Notes under the pieces: model-generated
Told to the model about the DNA's origin: nothing
Database searches by the model: none
What the model saw: only the letters and a program-made list of their open reading frames with translations
Assembly: GCA_964512155.1 (NCBI GenBank)
Contig: CAZEHL010000005.1
Span: 1-35,814, forward strand
Source: an uncultured Gammaproteobacteria bacterium
GTDB taxonomy: Bacteria > Patescibacteriota > Patescibacteriia > Patescibacteriales > JAGXOH01
Length of the DNA: 35,814 bases
Direction: 5' to 3'
In this document: piece after piece, positions 3,916-35,719 of the stretch
Numbering within the stretch: the stretch's first letter is position 1
Layout: each line of letters starts with the position of its first letter
Translations under genes and position numbers: made by a program

Positions 3916-4176
3916 GATCTCAAAGTCACCCCCAACCCCGATAGATAAAAAGTTGGCAAATAAACAATATTCCTTTGTAATGTATATATAAGTACAGGAA
4001 AAAGGGACGATACTTCAGATAGATTTAAAAAATTGGCCGAAATGGGCGAAGTGTTTTTTATGCGGGGCTATGGTTATGATAAAAAAATTGTGGAGGAGTA
4101 TTTCGATCAAAATATCGCGGACTTTTTAAAAAACCGGACGATTTTATAGACAAGAACATAATTCAAAGAACGATTG

Positions 4177-4202
4177 TAGGACATTTCTATTTTCCCTTTA
4201 CA
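4177..4202 (+). repeat. conserved intergenic box, copy A (core only)
   Basis: taggacatttctattttccctttaca matches the cores at 9620-9644 and 15670-15694. It lies 15 nt upstream of a -35-like TTGATT. Confidence 0.7.
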
Positions 4203-4217
4203 GACCAACACAAGATG

Positions 4218-4246
4218 TTGATTTTATTCTTAATATTAGTTAAATT
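4218..4246 (+). promoter_or_regulatory. candidate promoter of the small ORF
   Basis: TTGATT, 17-nt spacer, TAAATT, about 60 nt upstream of ATG 4306. Confidence 0.4.
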
Positions 4247-4305: not shown

Positions 4306-4476
4306 ATGGCGAAGAATCAACCCAGTAGGAATACCACCAAGCATGGCACTGATCGGTGCAGATCGGGTGGCGGCCCTTCCCACCATTCCCGTTCCGGCGG
4401 TTCTTCCGGAGGTTCGACCAAGAGCGGACGCACCGGCAACACCAAGGGCGGAGGATCCAAGAGGAGTAAACCCTAA
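4306..4476 (+). CDS. 56-aa basic Gly/Ser-rich small protein (below the ORF-track cutoff)
   Basis: AAGGAGG lies 7 nt upstream of the ATG. Translation: MAKNQPSRNTTKHGTDRCRSGGGPSHHSRSGGSSGGSTKSGRTGNTKGGGSKRSKP. A GC-rich hairpin follows 17 nt after the stop. Confidence 0.6.
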   Translation: MAKNQPSRNTTKHGTDRCRSGGGPSHHSRSGGSSGGSTKSGRTGNTKGGGSKRSKP

Positions 4477-5718: not shown

Positions 5719-5948
5719 AAATGATGTTTTATCGAATATTCGAGCTCCTTAATTTTTTACTTCATTAAAATAATACTATCAAGAGTTACTCGTGTAAAGA
5801 ACTGAACAGGTTGGCTGTCCCGCTCGAAATGCGCTTGAATTTGTTCATTTAATCAAGGAATGAATACATCAATGATGATTTTTATTCATAAAAAGTAGTG
5901 GTCATTTTTAGCTAGGGTTGTAAACTCCGTTCTTAGCTAATTATACCG

Positions 5949-5990
5949 CTACTTTTTTTAGTTTTCCACCACACTAAATATTATAGAGCC
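5949..5990 (-). repeat. conserved intergenic element, copy D (distal part only, inverted)
   Basis: Reverse complement ggctctataatatttagtgtggtggaaaactaaaaaaagtag matches 9580-9621 and 15630-15671. It lies upstream of, and co-oriented with, the M16 gene. Confidence 0.7.
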
Positions 5991-5999
5991 TATATTTAT

Positions 6000-9393: not shown

Positions 9394-9639
9394 TTATTCT
9401 CCGATATCCGTTCGATAATCAAGAGCGTTGGGTACAACTTCCTTTAAAACCTCATAAATTCTTTTTCTTGCCTCCTTCATCGTTTTATTGGAATGTTCGA
9501 ATAATAAAACAGGGGAATTCTGGAGTTGTAATGTGCGATAATCATTATCTTCTTCAATTGCATCCACCCATCCAGTAAAGGCTCTATAATATTTAGCGTG
9601 GTGGAAAGCTAAAAAAAGCAGGACATTTCTATTTCCCCT
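9394..9639 (-). pseudogene. start-less 81-codon open frame, possible 3' gene remnant
   Basis: Open from stop to stop (...FHHAKYYRAFTGWVDAIEEDNDYRTLQLQNSPVLLFEHSNKTMKEARKRIYEVLKEV...GE*) with no plausible start or RBS. Its 5' part coincides with repeat copy B. Confidence 0.2.
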
Positions 9640-9644
9640 TTACA
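9580..9644 (+). repeat. conserved intergenic element, copy B (distal part plus core; proximal part displaced to 10965 onward by the IS)
   Basis: ggctctataatatttagcgtggtggaaagctaaaaaaagcaggacatttctatttcccctttaca aligns at roughly 80 percent (by eye) with copy C at 15630-15694. Confidence 0.75.
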
Positions 9645-9650
9645 AGCAAG

Positions 9651-10964
9651 TCACTAGTGTCCGAGATAATTTTCACCAGAAACTCATTTGAGGATTTTCA
9701 ACCCTCTTTATTTTAAAAACGGTTTGGCTGTCCAAGGATAATAAATCAATTAAATTCCTCCTGATCATCAAAGTTTCTCTGATCATTCTGGTTAGCTCAA
9801 GCAGGGATTTGGAAAATTTAGTCTGAAATTTGATGTAAACAAGTAACAAATAATAGATCATGGCTATCCAGATCTGCGTCATAACCGCATTTTTACCGGT
9901 TCCCAGGAAAGTTTTGATTTTCAAATTCTGTTTTATCCATTTAAAAAATAACTCTATCTGCCACCTATCTTTGTAGATATCAGCAACCTGCTTAGCTGAT
10001 AATTCAAAATTATTTGTTAAATAGACATACTTCTTTTTAGTTTCCTTGTCCCAATATTTAATTCTTCTCAATCTATCGGGGTATTTTTTGTAATGCATAA
10101 CACTGTAATCCCCGAATATCACCATTTCATCGGCTAATATTCCTTTTTCCATTTTTTTGCCCTCATGCTGTCCGACAACAAAGATATTTTGATTGGTTTT
10201 TGCTCTTGAGACGAAAAATAGCCCCTTCTCATTCATTTTCTTCCACTGTTCATAATCAATGTAGGCGCGGTCAAAAGTCAATATACTGCCTTTTTCAAGC
10301 CTGTCTAGGTCTATTTGCTTAAATACGGATACATCTGCGCTTTTACCATCTGTGATATTAACTAACTCCGGAATTGCTGTCCGATTGTTTAGGAGTGTAT
10401 GAATTTTGAGTGCTCCTTTGGTGGTTCTGTATTTGGCCCAGTCGAACATGGACAGGCATAATTGGATTGTGGTGGAGTCGAAACTGTATAAGGGGTTGTT
10501 GAAGCTAAATTTTTCATTGTTCCCGGAAGCCATTTCCCGGCATTGATCCAATAACTGGTAAAACAATTTTTCATAAATTCGATAGTCCCGCCTGGCATTG
10601 GCGTCCGACAGAGTGGATTTGGCTGAAGTTTTCACTCCCAAATGATACCAGCTACCCTCATGCATATCAAAGCCTGTCTCTATTTCTCTTAAACTCTCTT
10701 TGCCCGTGGCTTGGGCAAAAAGCATCAGGATAAATTGATTCCAGGCATTCATTTTTTTAGTGGATTTATCAGCGTTATGTTCTTTTACAAATTGTTCAAA
10801 TTTGTATTTAGGTAGAAAACCTAGTAATTGGTTAAAGATTGTGTTAGTGTATTTATACATAGAAGTCCGAATTTTTAGAGTTAATAATAGTTTCGACACC
10901 TATATTATACCCTAAAATCGGGCTTCTTTTAATTTTTGGTGAAAATTATCTCGGACACTAGTGA
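9651..10964 (-). mobile_element. complete IS4-family-like insertion sequence (1314 bp)
   Basis: Perfect 28-bp terminal inverted repeats: tcactagtgtccgagataattttcacca at 9651-9678 and its reverse complement at 10937-10964. A single transposase ORF fills the element. No clean target-site duplication seen. Confidence 0.85.
9673..10860 (-). CDS. IS4-like DDE transposase (DUF4372-type N-terminus)
   Basis: The N-terminus MYKYTNTIFNQLLGFLPKYKFEQFV...FILMLFAQATGKESLREIE is typical of DUF4372+DDE_Tnp_1 transposases. The ORF track extends to a GTG at 10899; ATG 10860 is preferred. Confidence 0.85.
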   Translation of the reverse strand: MYKYTNTIFNQLLGFLPKYKFEQFVKEHNADKSTKKMNAWNQFILMLFAQATGKESLREIETGFDMHEGSWYHLGVKTSAKSTLSDANARRDYRIYEKLFYQLLDQCREMASGNNEKFSFNNPLYSFDSTTIQLCLSMFDWAKYRTTKGALKIHTLLNNRTAIPELVNITDGKSADVSVFKQIDLDRLEKGSILTFDRAYIDYEQWKKMNEKGLFFVSRAKTNQNIFVVGQHEGKKMEKGILADEMVIFGDYSVMHYKKYPDRLRRIKYWDKETKKKYVYLTNNFELSAKQVADIYKDRWQIELFFKWIKQNLKIKTFLGTGKNAVMTQIWIAMIYYLLLVYIKFQTKFSKSLLELTRMIRETLMIRRNLIDLLSLDSQTVFKIKRVENPQMSFW

Positions 10965-10980
10965 TAGAGCCCTGCGACAT

Positions 10981-11008
10981 TTGACTTTTAAATATAATAT
11001 GGTAAAAT
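10981..11008 (+). promoter_or_regulatory. candidate cysS promoter (extended -10)
   Basis: TTGACT, 16-nt spacer, TGgTAAAAT. Homologous in position and sequence to the promoter after repeat copy C. Confidence 0.45.
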
Positions 11009-11117: not shown

Positions 11118-12566
11118 ATGATAAAAATATATAATTCTTTGAGTAGAAAAAAGGAAGAATTTAAGCCTGTACAAGAACAAGAAGTTAATATGTATGCTTG
11201 CGGGGTTACTCCTTATGCCGATATCCATGTCGGCCATGCCAGGCAAGCAATTGTGTATGATATTATTAGAGCTTATTTTAAGTATCGTGGTTATAATGTA
11301 AATTATATACGTAATTTTACTGATGTGGATGACAAAATAATCGATAAAGCCAATAAAGAAAAAAAAGAAAGTGGTCATATCAGTGAATATTATATCCAGG
11401 AAAACACCAAAGACCTGGATTCACTTAAAGTCCATCGAGCCACTCATGAACCAAAAGTTACTGATTGCATCCCGGAGATAATCGAATTCATTCAAAAATT
11501 GATTGACAAGGGATATGCTTACGAAGCAGGTGGAGATATTTTTTTTGAGATTAATAAATACAGTGAGTATGGAAAATTGTCTAATCGAAAAAAAGAAGAC
11601 TTGATAAATTCGGATGAATCTCCGAACAAGAGAAATAGCAATGACTTTGTTTTATGGAAATCACATAAACCAGGAGAGCCATATTGGGAATCACCGTGGT
11701 CCAAGGGACGCCCAGGTTGGCACATTGAGTGCTCTGTGATGGCCCATAAGTATTTAGGGAGTGAAATAGATATTCATGGTGGAGGATTAGACCTAATTTT
11801 TCCTCATCATGAAAATGAAATTGCGCAAAGTGAAGCCTATTCCGGTAAAAAATTCGCTCATTATTGGGTTCATAACGGCACAGTAATGATTGAAGGAGCT
11901 AAGATGAGCAAAAGTGAGGGTAATTTCCTAATAGTCAAAGATATATTAACTGAATTTTTCCCGGATGAGATTAGATATGCTATTTTGGCCCATCACTACA
12001 ACTCAAATATGGATTTTTCTTATGAATTACTTTTGAATGCGCGAAAACGAGTATATTATTTTTATAAAAGTTTGGACAAATTTGCTAATATTGCGAATAG
12101 AAAGAATGAGAAGATTGATATAAATAAAGATAAGTTACCAGCAAGCATTACCAATTTCGAGAAAAAATTCGTAGAGTATATGGATAATGACTTTAACACG
12201 CCCAAAGTATTTTCCGAACTCTCCGAGGCTTTCAAGATTTTAAACAAGATTGCTGATTCCCAAGAATATTCATCCGCTGAGAAGAGCTCTGTTTTTAATA
12301 TTTTCTTTGAGCAATTCAATAAAATTTCAGCTGTTCTCAGGTTGTTTGATGAAAATCCAAAAAAATATCTGGCACAATTTAAAAGAAAATTCTTGCAGGA
12401 TCAAGGGGTGAATGAACAATATATAGAGCGGAAAATAATCGAGCGACAAAAGGCTAAAAAAGAAAAGGACTATACAAAGGCGGACCATATCAAGGAGGAA
12501 CTTTTGGAAAAGGGGATTTCAGTGCAAGATCTACCTTATTCCACAAGTTGGGATATAATATTATGA
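11118..12566 (+). CDS. cysS: cysteine--tRNA ligase
   Basis: 482 aa. HIGH-type motif HVGHARQA and KMSKS motif (AKMSKSEGN). Class I CysRS length and layout. Confidence 0.92.
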   Translation: MIKIYNSLSRKKEEFKPVQEQEVNMYACGVTPYADIHVGHARQAIVYDIIRAYFKYRGYNVNYIRNFTDVDDKIIDKANKEKKESGHISEYYIQENTKDLDSLKVHRATHEPKVTDCIPEIIEFIQKLIDKGYAYEAGGDIFFEINKYSEYGKLSNRKKEDLINSDESPNKRNSNDFVLWKSHKPGEPYWESPWSKGRPGWHIECSVMAHKYLGSEIDIHGGGLDLIFPHHENEIAQSEAYSGKKFAHYWVHNGTVMIEGAKMSKSEGNFLIVKDILTEFFPDEIRYAILAHHYNSNMDFSYELLLNARKRVYYFYKSLDKFANIANRKNEKIDINKDKLPASITNFEKKFVEYMDNDFNTPKVFSELSEAFKILNKIADSQEYSSAEKSSVFNIFFEQFNKISAVLRLFDENPKKYLAQFKRKFLQDQGVNEQYIERKIIERQKAKKEKDYTKADHIKEELLEKGISVQDLPYSTSWDIIL

Positions 12567-15629: not shown

Positions 15630-15713
15630 AGCTCTACAATATTTAATGTGATGCAAAGTTAAAAAAAGTAGGACATTTCTGTTCCCCCTTTACATAGAGC
15701 TGCAACTCTTGAC
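15630..15713 (+). repeat. conserved intergenic element, copy C (complete, uninterrupted)
   Basis: agctctacaatatttaatgtgatgcaaagttaaaaaaagtaggacatttctgttccccctttacatagagctgcaactcttgac. Aligns with copy B on both sides of the IS insertion point. Confidence 0.75.
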
Positions 15714-15737
15714 TTATTTTGAATAAATTGTTATATT
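15709..15737 (+). promoter_or_regulatory. candidate promoter downstream of repeat copy C
   Basis: TTGACT, 17-nt spacer, TATATT. Confidence 0.45.
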
Positions 15738-15858: not shown

Positions 15859-16800
15859 ATGTTGTTTGTGAATAATGGGTTTTTAGCTCGAAGACTAATG
15901 AAGAAGGAAGAGGTAGCCCTTGAAAATTTAAATTTCGAATTTTCTAAAAAGGGTTATATGCTCCGTCTAATGGTAATGCATATTTTAGTTGTATGGGTCT
16001 TTATAAAGAAAAAGACTCTAAAAATGTTTAGTAGAAATCCTAAAGTAAACACCTATTGGGTTGATGGCTTTAGTGAATTAACTAACGCCATCAAAGAGGG
16101 TGCTCAGTCTTGGAAGGCTCTTGATATAATTTATAATTATCGCTTTCGAGAAGAAGGAGGTATGCATAACAAATGGGAAGATTGGTGGTTGCGTATCGCT
16201 AACGCTCGGGCAGTCAGAAATCGACTGAAGTTGGTTTCCCATTTATTAGAAGCAGAAATCCTTAGAATAGCTCGAGAACAGGGAAAAACCGAGGTAAAGG
16301 TTTTTTCCATAGCATCCGGGTCCGCCCAGGCTGTTTTAAGTGCTGCTTTAACTGTAAAGAAGCATGGGATAAAAACCAAGATAACATTATTAGATTTGGA
16401 TCAAGAAGCTTTGGAGTATAGCAAGAATTTATCTAAAAAGTACGGTTTGAATGGTGATATTGTTACTATTCAAAGCGCCACCAACGGATTTGAAAAAAAG
16501 GTAGAAAGTCCGGATATAATAGAAATGGTAGGATTTCTTGATTACAGGCCACACGCCAAGGCCGTAAAATTACTAAAGAGGATCAAAGAATTCCTTCCTT
16601 CTTACGGCTCTTTCATTACAGCCAATATTATGCATAATCCGGAAAAGTGGTTTATGCATATTGTATTGAATTGGCCGATGCTTCATAGGAAGCGAAATGA
16701 GTTTGAAAAAGTACTTGAAGAAGCAGATTTTGCTTCTTTTCAAACAGTAGTGGAACCTTATAACATTCATGTTGTGGGAGTATGCTACAAAAAAAATTGA
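15859..16800 (+). CDS. putative class I SAM-dependent methyltransferase-like protein
   Basis: ORF track starts at GTG 15742. I prefer ATG 15859 because AGGAGG lies 7 nt upstream. VKVFSIASGSAQAV...LLDLDQEALEYS resembles Rossmann motif I/II of SAM methyltransferases. The family assignment is tentative. Confidence 0.55.
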   Translation: MLFVNNGFLARRLMKKEEVALENLNFEFSKKGYMLRLMVMHILVVWVFIKKKTLKMFSRNPKVNTYWVDGFSELTNAIKEGAQSWKALDIIYNYRFREEGGMHNKWEDWWLRIANARAVRNRLKLVSHLLEAEILRIAREQGKTEVKVFSIASGSAQAVLSAALTVKKHGIKTKITLLDLDQEALEYSKNLSKKYGLNGDIVTIQSATNGFEKKVESPDIIEMVGFLDYRPHAKAVKLLKRIKEFLPSYGSFITANIMHNPEKWFMHIVLNWPMLHRKRNEFEKVLEEADFASFQTVVEPYNIHVVGVCYKKN

Positions 16801-19035: not shown

Positions 19036-19059
19036 AATATCCGCTTAATTTTTAAAATA

Positions 19060-19089
19060 AATGTTTCACACTGGCCAGTGTGAAACATT
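19060..19089. repeat. 30-bp perfect palindrome (copy 2 of 2), probable terminator of the kinase gene
   Basis: aatgtttcacactgg|ccagtgtgaaacatt, 25 nt after the kinase stop. Same sequence as 12-43. Confidence 0.8.
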
Positions 19090-34522: not shown

Positions 34523-35113
34523 TTATGAATTTAAATTATTTCTCCCTTCCTTTTCTTTTTCGTTCGCATCCTTGATCTCTTGGAATTTCCTGAAAAGGTA
34601 ATCCCAGAAATCATATCCTTCCAGCCAGAAGTCTTCCTTTTTGCCGTTGATGTGAGTGATGGTCCAGCTAGGATGATTCTGAAACCATTCTTCCGTAGGA
34701 ATATTGGGATAGGCTTGATCCGGAACACAATAAGAGTCCCAATAGACCACTTGGCCAAATCTTTCTCCTTTGCCAACCACACAGTAATATCCGCCCATGC
34801 CATCCAGATTTACTATTATAAGGTCATCGGGTAGTTCTAGGCCATCTCTTAACTCCAGTGTCATCCCTAGGGCGGACCATAAATACTCTCCAGAATTTAA
34901 TAAAGCATCACTATCTTCCGGAATCACACTACCTAATAAATCCATAGAGGGGATACACCCGTAATTGAGCAGAAATTCCCTGTATTCCGGAGGAGTTTTC
35001 AGGTCCAACTTTTTCTCTATTTCCTGAATTCCGTCCTCGGTCATTGGTTCCCCGAAATCCAGATTTGATTCCCGGGTCCAAGCGTTCATTTTTTGTTTGA
35101 TTTCTTGATTCAT
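34523..35113 (-). CDS. SUKH (SMI1/KNR4) family immunity protein, tandem paralog 1
   Basis: 196 aa. GIQEIEKKLDLKTPPEYREFLLNYGC...LDGMGGYYCVVGKGERFGQVVYWD...EDFWLEGYDFWDYLFRKF. Confidence 0.85.
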   Translation of the reverse strand: MNQEIKQKMNAWTRESNLDFGEPMTEDGIQEIEKKLDLKTPPEYREFLLNYGCIPSMDLLGSVIPEDSDALLNSGEYLWSALGMTLELRDGLELPDDLIIVNLDGMGGYYCVVGKGERFGQVVYWDSYCVPDQAYPNIPTEEWFQNHPSWTITHINGKKEDFWLEGYDFWDYLFRKFQEIKDANEKEKEGRNNLNS

Positions 35114-35116
35114 AAT

Positions 35117-35719
35117 TTAGTCTTTACTGTTTTTATCGCCTTCCTCTTCCTTTTCCTTTTCCTTTTCGTTCGCATCCTTAATCTTCTGGAATTTCCTGAA
35201 TAGATAATCCCAGAAATCATAGCCCCTCAACCAAAAGTCTTCTTTTTTGCTGTTGATGTGGCCGACAGTCCAGTTAGGGTGCCTCTGAAACCAATTCTCT
35301 GTAGGGATATTGGGATAAACCTGATCCGGGACGCAATAAGAGTCCCAATAGACCACTTGGCCAAATCTTTCTCCTTTGCCAACCACACAGTAATATCCGC
35401 CCATGCCATCCAGATTTACTATTATAAGGTCATCGGGTAGTTCTAGGCCATCTCTTAACTCCAGTGTCATCCCTAGGGCGGACCATAAATACTCTCCAGA
35501 ATTTAATAAAGCATCACTATCTTCCGGAATCACACTACCTAATAAATCCATAGAGGGGATACACCCGTAATTGAGCAGAAATTCCCTGTATTCCGGAGGA
35601 GTTTTCAGGTCCAACTTTTTCTCTATTTCCTGAATTCCGTCCTCGGTCATTGGTTCCCCGAAATCCAGATTTAATTCCCGGGTCCAAGCGTTCATTTTTT
35701 GTTTGATCTCTTGGTTCAT
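35117..35719 (-). CDS. SUKH (SMI1/KNR4) family immunity protein, tandem paralog 2
   Basis: Identical to paralog 1 except one residue (L for S at position 15) until position 143 (V for A), then divergent. Start set at ATG 35719 (GGAG RBS) rather than the track start 35767. Confidence 0.85.
   Translation of the reverse strand: MNQEIKQKMNAWTRELNLDFGEPMTEDGIQEIEKKLDLKTPPEYREFLLNYGCIPSMDLLGSVIPEDSDALLNSGEYLWSALGMTLELRDGLELPDDLIIVNLDGMGGYYCVVGKGERFGQVVYWDSYCVPDQVYPNIPTENWFQRHPNWTVGHINSKKEDFWLRGYDFWDYLFRKFQKIKDANEKEKEKEEEGDKNSKD

Follow-up and report, generated by a model that had tools for sequence, protein, structure and literature searches.

The repeat that lies upstream of several genes in the AT-rich block of the window is read here as a mosaic of insertion sequence (IS) termini and not as a regulatory site, and its association with promoters as a consequence of the target choice of the IS. 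We put the probability of this reading at about 85%. The window is the whole stretch of DNA analysed, 35,814 nucleotides in length, and is the entire contig C5 of a 950-kb assembly in 84 contigs. Below, C, G, and L numbers refer to contigs, genomes, and loci.

Copies of the Repeat in the Window

Four copies (A, B, C, and D) had been described at 4177, 5949 (inverted), 9580, and 15630, and sequence reading and BLAST confirm all of them. They had been taken as full or partial copies of a single element of about 85 bp. The repeat is instead composed of two unrelated modules, which are joined in B and C and are also found apart, the distal module alone in D and the core alone in A and on contig C70. 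Copy B (9581-9644) and copy C (15631-15694) are 86% identical over 64 nucleotides. A 27-nucleotide core is common to A (4176-4202), B (9618-9644), and C (15668-15694) with 89-100% identity, and the distal part of B shows 91% complementarity to D (5949-5994, minus strand). As described earlier, A holds the core only and D the distal part only. The sequence of the 24-nucleotide core is GGACATTTCTaTTyCCCCTTTACA. The predicted features are listed below.

4176-4202, plus strand: copy A, solo right-end tip of an IS1202-family IS (GTA and the 24-nucleotide terminal inverted repeat)
4203-4246, plus strand: flank of A, with 15 nucleotides at the position of the former target duplication, TTGATT (4218-4223), 17 nucleotides, and TAAATT (4241-4246)
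5887-5991, minus strand: copy D, relic left end of an ISL3-family IS
9580-9620, plus strand: distal module of copy B, first 41 nucleotides of an ISL3-family terminal repeat
9618-9644, plus strand: core of copy B, IS1202-family right-end tip
9651-10964, minus strand: intact IS4-family IS between the core and the promoter of B
10965-11008, plus strand: right part of B, with the 16 nucleotides TAGAGCCCTGCGACAT, TTGACT (10981-10986), and TAAAAT (11003-11008)
15630-15670, plus strand: distal module of copy C, ISL3-family terminal repeat, 41 nucleotides, 85% identical to D
15668-15694, plus strand: core of copy C, IS1202-family right-end tip
15695-15737, plus strand: flank of C, with the 14 nucleotides TAGAGCTGCAACTC, TTGACT (15709-15714), 17 nucleotides, and TATATT (15732-15737)

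Copy A has none of the IS body, inner unit, or left end remaining, and a profile of the full IS matches it only at model positions 1488-1514 (nhmmer). Copy D begins with the tip GGCTCTATAATATTTAGTGTGG... on the minus strand, followed by approximately 105 nucleotides of IS leader; the transposase gene is lost. The extension of D to about 5887 was judged by eye on printed sequences, and the segment from about 5917 to 5991 by copies with 95% identity.

Each core is followed by a predicted promoter. The flank of A would serve a 56-amino-acid ORF (4306-4476), the right part of B the cysS copy of the island (11118-12566), and the flank of C a Methyltransf_20-like gene (ATG at 15859). The -35-like hexamer reported 14-16 nucleotides past the core is present, as TTGATT at 15 nucleotides in A, TTGACT at 14 nucleotides in C, and TTGACT at 16 nucleotides in B, where the spacing is uncertain since it is counted after removal of the IS4-family element and of the sequence AGCAAG. 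The 16 nucleotides of B occupy the position of the former duplication and start with TAGAGCC, which resembles an ISL3 tip. The 14-nucleotide flank of C is homologous to the flank of B. A promoter scan placed the promoters of B and C among the best consensus matches (10 out of 12 with TG), and the region overall showed no enrichment over shuffled sequences (60 found, mean of 53 in shuffles). The argument for promoters is based on the comparative flank logo presented below and not on the generic scan.

The IS4-family element that interrupts B is 1314 bp in length, with 32-bp inverted ends and a 408-amino-acid transposase (9673-10899; NF033592, E 1.6e-83). It has a single copy in the assembly, and B resumes at 10965. 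No target duplication was seen around it (9651-10964). The six bases to its left, AGCAAG (9645-9650), are unexplained.

The Core as the Right End of an IS1202-Family Element

With no more than two mismatches allowed, the 24-nucleotide core matched 75 sites among 316 genomes of the same Patescibacteria order; these sites come from 40 genomes, in 26 of 96 genera. The reversed control pattern has no match in the same 316 genomes. In loci L002, L025, L042, L046, L050, L068, L069, and L094 the core closes an element of 1.39-1.48 kb that contains a transposase ORF of 415-441 amino acids. The ORFs of L025 and L002, the two copies scanned, match the NCBIfam model NF033594 (ISNCY transposase) with E values of 3e-107 and 8e-114 and with 359-381 bits against a curated cutoff of 250. 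Pfam identified HTH_29, HTH_28, and HTH_32 domains in L002, L025, and L042. In tblastn searches, annotated plasmid transposases of ISNCY and "IS1202-like ISEsa1" elements share 37-40% identity with the transposase across 91-98% of its length. A phmmer search against PDB sequences found no meaningful solved structure for the transposase.

The full copies have left ends TGTG... or TGTC..., right ends ...TTTACA or ...TTGACA, and terminal inverted arms of 19-31 nucleotides (78-95%). The left end consists of the inverted motif, TGT...GATAATGTCC(T/A)..., and an inner unit. The inner unit of the right end, GTAGGACATTTCTAAAT, is found approximately 30 nucleotides inside the right terminal inverted repeat (IRR), and the inner unit TAGAAATGTCCTA is found inside the left one (IRL). 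Perfect direct repeats of 15-16 bp (one possibly of 17 bp) were verified at 15 insertions. From copy to copy the transposase is only 42-67% identical, and yet the tip hardly varies; conservation of the tip therefore reflects recognition by the transposase. In Aliivibrio salmonicida, an annotated ISNCY element has the same motif, GTGACATTTCTAACTTGCTTTAACA, at its end, together with the same inner unit. Several contigs begin with a core that ends at nucleotide 54, 55, or 96-99, which is the k-1 overlap of the assembler. The boundary of the repeat is thus the 3' end of the core, exactly at ...TTTACA.

Members of the IS1202 family have TGT/ACA tips, terminal repeats of 24-26 bp, and, near each end, an additional internal site for the transposase. 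They are divided into duplication-length classes that include a 15-17-bp subgroup, ISTde1 (Harmer, Pong, and Hall 2023, PMC10132070; Siguier et al. 2022, bioRxiv 10.1101/2022.12.17.520857). The element found here shares with the IS1202 family (formerly the IS1202 group of ISNCY) and its ISTde1 subgroup the length of about 1.4-1.5 kb, a single HTH and DDE transposase, the 5'-TGT...ACA-3' tips, imperfect repeats of about 24 bp, internal repeats, and a duplication of 15-17 bp. It differs in that its hosts are Patescibacteria, that the window has solo right-end tips only and no IS of this kind, that the duplication abuts a -35 hexamer, and that the end facing the promoter is specific to the subfamily. 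By homology, the core is identified as the IRR of an IS1202-family (ISNCY) element of approximately 1.4 kb that is widespread in this Patescibacteria order. Placement with the ISTde1-like subgroup is an assignment by the 15-16-bp duplication length only.

The Distal Module and the Junction in Copies B and C

G002 and G007 contain copies that resemble D with 95% identity over 74-75 nucleotides; several of these copies are located at the ends of contigs. At L053 the same end is followed by a 406-amino-acid ORF that matches NF033550 (ISL3 transposase) with an E value of 7e-76. The left end of the L053 element is GGCTCTATAATATT... and its right end is ...CACAGAGCC, the inverted GGCTCT tip. Judged by this match, the distal 41 nucleotides are the terminal repeat of an ISL3-family IS. 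The module begins with the GGCTCT tip typical of that family, and relatives carry its zinc-finger-containing transposase (NF033550). Unlike a complete ISL3 member, the window retains 41-105 nucleotides of one end (about 105 of the left end in D, 41 in B and in C) with no transposase and no visible 8-bp duplication; in particular, no 8-bp repeat flanks B or C. The contigs that hold ISL3 copies in relatives break inside the element.

In B and C the core is fused to the ISL3 end at the common heptamer AAAG(C/T)AG. The B/C junction, ...AAAAAAAG(C/T)AG/GACATTT..., falls within the heptamer AAAGTAG, which is found at nucleotides 35-41 of the ISL3 end and which full copies also have directly in front of the IS1202-type tip. 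Past the core, the sequence resembles the ISL3 tip again, as TAGAGCC in B and TAGAGCT in C. These junctions point to nested or adjacent IS insertions upstream of one promoter, after which a microhomology deletion at the AAAGYAG heptamer would have removed both IS bodies. A junction piece of about 95 bp, including the TTGACTT of the promoter, may then have been duplicated to give B and C. Such a duplication would account for the homologous flanks of B and C next to the unrelated flanks of A, C70, and C48. Solo IRR tips thus occur independently at A, C70, and C48, and solo ISL3 ends at D and C56. A miniature element mobilized by ISL3 was considered for B and C; these copies have no 8-bp duplication and their homology continues into the promoter, and segmental duplication is preferred.

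Pairing between parts of the repeat was weighed as a sign of a structured RNA, such as a leader, a riboswitch, or a small RNA, and of an attC-type integron hairpin recombination site. B and C have an outer stem of 7-8 bp (GGCTCTAT/ATAGAGCC), and an inner stem TTTAGC/GCTAAA shows apparently compensating changes among B, C, and D. The outer "stem" is accounted for by ISL3 tip sequences on both sides. The window contains no Rfam match at the gathering score and no tRNA (ARAGORN), and the fold z-scores of -0.5, -0.8, +1.0, and -0.6 show no unusual stability for an RNA in the range from -0.8 to +1.0. The element also lies upstream of the predicted promoters, and its modules occur separately. For attC, there is no GTTRRRY-type core on the copies read, and no integrase appeared when 20 of the larger ORFs in the window were scanned with Pfam. 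Either form of this explanation is highly improbable.

Other Copies in the Same Assembly

BLAST against the whole assembly and a PWM scan identified a perfect core at C70:260-283 with TTGACA 15 nucleotides on. Degenerate cores are located at C48:1724-1747 and on contig C49. The PWM scan gives six clear sites above 22 bits; what is left at a threshold of 12 is at noise level, with two forward hits and six in reversed-sequence controls. Every copy that could be evaluated has a -35-like hexamer 14-16 nucleotides beyond the core.

With three transposases as tblastn queries, no IS1202-type transposase was matched in the assembly at E values up to 1. No decayed transposase was found beside A or B, where nothing past the tip was matched (tblastn E up to 1; nhmmer). 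A stretch upstream of B, "ASTHPVK," resembles the transposase C-terminus; the similarity is weak and non-significant, and it was rejected. Only the last 27-29 nucleotides of the IS1202-type element are retained in the assembly (nhmmer), with no IRL or inner unit. A, B, and C are relics and not complete IS1202-family members, as they have neither the two ends nor the transposase gene, a status that depends on 24-41 nucleotides of homology to element ends in other genomes. They probably have no function now.

For ISL3, tblastn found no credible transposase match in the assembly (best E 0.079). The first 54 nucleotides of C56 are identical to D (window 5938-5991 exactly), and divergence begins at the ISL3 tip. 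The end of C33 has 13 codons that resemble the C-terminus of the ISL3 transposase (weak tblastn match, E 0.73). C56 and C33 suggest, and do not establish, that ISL3 copies exist in the organism and were collapsed in the assembly.

Insertion Next to the -35 Hexamer

From the 75 distinct core sites collected, 57 independent right flanks of the ...TTTACA-tipped subfamily were analyzed. TTGACA, with no more than one mismatch, is present at an offset of 14-17 nucleotides in 37 of the 57, compared with a background of 2.1% (binomial p ~4e-48). At exactly 15 nucleotides it is present in 26 of the 57, compared with 0.5% per single offset (p ~4e-44). Approximately one third of the flanks have no good -35 at the expected offset. 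The logo of the flanks is N15-TTGACA-N14-TG-N-TAnnnT, with uninformative first 15 nucleotides and an extended -10 spacing. The combination of a -35 with an extended -10 indicates real sigma-70-type promoters and not stray hexamers.

The duplication abuts the -35 directly in 14 of the 15 insertions with a verified duplication. As the hexamer lies beyond the duplication, it is part of the target DNA. Examples are L002 (GAGATAGTAAAATAGA followed directly by TTGACA), L025, three copies in G007, and copies in G058, G301, and G055. Bursts of identical copies within one genome obey the same rule, in four of four copies in G058, two of two in G301, and three of four TTTACA-tipped copies in G274. An empty site is available for the rpsO promoter, TTGATT-N17-TGTTATTGT, which has no IS or core in G005, G003, and G006, while in G007 the IS is inserted 15 bp upstream of it. 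The rpsO promoter was used for this comparison; the cysS of the window is a divergent second copy that has no orthologues at this position.

A sister subfamily has the left tip TGTC... and the right tip ...CCTTGACA (L050, L068, L069, L112, L119, and L128; G220, G099, G013, and G274). On its right side, the expected offset has a -35 in 0 of 13 copies. On the left, all six verified copies and two further left ends have TTGAC(A/T) as its reverse complement directly beside the duplication, and a -10 follows in the three copies read further. The promoter of the sister subfamily thus reads away from the left end. In this subfamily the left end is the one placed 15 bp from the -35, and the orientation is reversed relative to the subfamily that left the window relics. 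The tip of the IS itself ends in TTTACA or TTGACA and so resembles its own target.

These data are consistent with an IS family that picks its target next to the -35 hexamer of sigma-70 promoters. Staggered cuts would duplicate the 15-16 bp directly upstream of TTGACA. The tip would then lie in one orientation, some 15 bp away from the -35, and the core promoter would stay intact. By analogy to ISAjo2-type relatives, the -35 may be read by the transposase or by its complex with promoter-bound sigma factor or RNA polymerase. The insertions analyzed are natural ones that have survived selection, many of the assemblies are fragmented MAGs, and all of the evidence is comparative. On this evidence, mechanistic targeting of the -35 is the most likely cause of the promoter adjacency. 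It is favored because purifying selection alone could not produce a fixed distance and orientation, and because the ISAjo2-type elements set a precedent.

The competing explanation by survivorship holds that insertion is random and that harmless sites upstream of promoters are those that persist. Most random insertions would be lethal in gene-dense genomes of about 1 Mb, and the third of flanks that have no canonical -35 at the expected offset fits this account. Selection is indifferent to distance and orientation, however, yet 26 of 57 flanks have the hexamer at exactly 15 nucleotides and the orientation is fixed per subfamily. Recent multi-copy bursts in single genomes follow the same rule (G058, G274, G301, and G007), and ISAjo2-type relatives are known site-hunters whose duplication abuts a recognized site (PMC10132070). 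Survivorship as the only cause is therefore very unlikely.

The fixed distance between core and -35 had been read as typical of an activator site or UP-like module. The distance is real; it reflects where the IS lands. In its present form, the regulatory explanation would have the core as a cis-regulatory module, class-I-type or UP-like and centered near -62, that was kept after loss of the IS body and is bound by a putative host factor or by the alpha subunit of RNA polymerase. The position fixed relative to the -35 agrees with such a module, as do about 16 solo tips that combine a sharp inner boundary with near-perfect conservation of the 24 nucleotides in the absence of a transposase, and the retention of a solo tip by two congeneric species (L007 and L095). 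The same 24 nucleotides are, however, recognized by a transposase as the terminal inverted repeat of the mobile element that, in related genomes, encodes it and makes target duplications. This recognition is sufficient to explain the conservation, and the fixed distance equals the length of the target duplication. The core spans about -51 to -74 and has no A/T-tract UP element, no candidate regulator was found, and orthologous promoters in related genomes have no core. A shared role is also not apparent among the genes downstream of core sites, which are rpsF (twice), rpsO, an rpoD-like gene, metG, clpP, secE-nusG-rplK (twice), the cysS of the island, and genes of unknown function; they are often housekeeping genes and have no common functional theme. 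A regulatory module is accordingly considered unlikely. The alternative offered in the preliminary description, junction scars of an accretion process, was close to the truth, as the copies are relics of IS ends that lie between gene modules of the AT-rich block.

Relics of the same IS family are found upstream of secE-nusG-rplK at L031 (G028) and L035 (G146), and upstream of rpsF-ssb at L001 (G002) and L033 (G139), in each case in different families of the order. The independent relics at the same operons suggest repeated hits on strong housekeeping promoters.

Comparison with Other Targeting Elements

ISAjo2-type elements insert with a 5-bp duplication directly beside a XerC-bound site (PMC10132070). 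The ISAjo2/ISAba32-type elements, which home to dif and pdif sites of XerC/XerD, resemble the element described here in their orientation-specific insertion, in a duplication located beside a short recognized site, and in the use of a single transposase with no Tn7-like accessory targeting proteins. They differ in having duplications of 5-6 bp and the IRL next to the XerC half-site, whereas the element here has a 15-16-bp duplication next to a TTGACA promoter element. Given the different target and duplication, the recognized partner, either DNA alone or sigma factor and RNA polymerase, must differ.

Targeting of transcription units is also found among yeast retrotransposons, where Ty3 and Ty1 target Pol III genes and Tf1 targets Pol II promoters. 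These elements likewise inhabit compact genomes, and they integrate upstream of transcription units at a short and constant distance. Coding sequence and core promoter are spared in such a "safe haven." Their integration machinery is unrelated and is tethered to eukaryotic transcription factors, and the analogy is one of strategy only.

The TTTACA or TTGACA at the tip is a likeness to putative mobile promoters and to outward promoters carried by IS. In contrast to these, the functional -35 and -10 for the element here are in the target DNA past the duplication and already exist in empty sites; the IS does not bring the promoter. An outward-facing -35-like hexamer in the IS end has been noted for copy-out-paste-in IS (bioRxiv 10.1101/2022.12.17.520857).

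Published surveys name no target for the long-duplication IS1202 subgroups, and Harmer et al. state that none was found (PMC10132070; bioRxiv 10.1101/2022.12.17.520857). Our search of the literature on the IS1202 family found no description of a target preference for these subgroups. The IS1202 and ISL3 families and IS relics are known, and homing next to the -35 by an IS1202-family element in Patescibacteria, as indicated by the flanks, looks new. It supplies a testable rule for one long-duplication IS1202 lineage, namely a 15-16-bp duplication that abuts TTGACA in a fixed orientation. Parking just upstream of core promoters would be a neat solution in gene-dense genomes of about 1 Mb, and an insertion could rewire the upstream regulation of housekeeping operons (rpsF, rpsO, secE-nusG, and clpP). 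The tips may also help to locate real promoters in uncultured Patescibacteria, whose promoters are poorly annotated.

Solo Tips

Approximately 16 solo tips were identified across the genomes, four of them in this assembly (A, B, C, and C70), and only 24-29 nucleotides of the right end are kept in each. The solo tips stop sharply at the inner edge of the repeat, where decay by random deletion would give ragged edges. The sharp edge could be due to selective retention, through promoter modulation or protection against re-insertion, or could be the footprint of an excision or a step in it. Many copies also have a palindrome, AAATGTCC-N5-GGACATTT, directly inside the tip, and it may have stimulated a deletion there.

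A 53-bp miniature is present at L090 (G282:C22, about 12100-12200). It is composed of a 29-nucleotide right-subterminal piece and the 24-nucleotide tip, with a perfect direct repeat of 16 bp, GACTTAAAAAGTAGAG, on either side. The miniature demonstrates that short derivatives are able to move or to arise precisely.

Exaptation of the solo tips is not expected and is given a low chance. A combined reading, in which a Patescibacteria IS1202 lineage homes to sigma-70 promoters by way of the -35 (read directly or through bound sigma factor or RNA polymerase) and the solo tips are also kept for a function, is drawn partly by analogy with Acinetobacter relatives that read XerC-bound dif sites and is doubtful. 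If true, the lineage would do in bacteria what Ty3 and Tf1 do in yeast by promoter-tethered integration, and the solo tips would modulate the promoter or block re-insertion in the manner of target immunity.

Neighboring Features of the Window

For the window itself, the "conserved upstream box" of an AT-rich, biosynthetic-looking island is best regarded as IS debris that marks assembly seams, and a false lead is thereby removed. The cysS gene of this block (11118-12566) shares only 38% identity with the copy at G000:C16:4781-6208 and 37-41% with cysS genes from related genomes, and is thus a second, divergent cysteinyl-tRNA synthetase gene. Its neighbors are an agrocin-84-like cassette, a GNAT gene, and two radical-SAM/SPASM genes. 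This cysS could be a self-resistance copy against an inhibitor of the aminoacyl-tRNA synthetase.

A 35-nucleotide palindromic sequence, AAATAAATGTTTyACACTGGCCAGTGTGAAACATT, occurs in near-identical form at 8-44 and 19055-19089, 19 kb apart, and looks like a REP-like element or a shared terminator. A 300-nucleotide direct repeat with 89% identity (34547-34846 and 35153-35452) extends across two adjacent minus-strand ORFs of 196 and 216 amino acids, which appear to be tandem paralogues.
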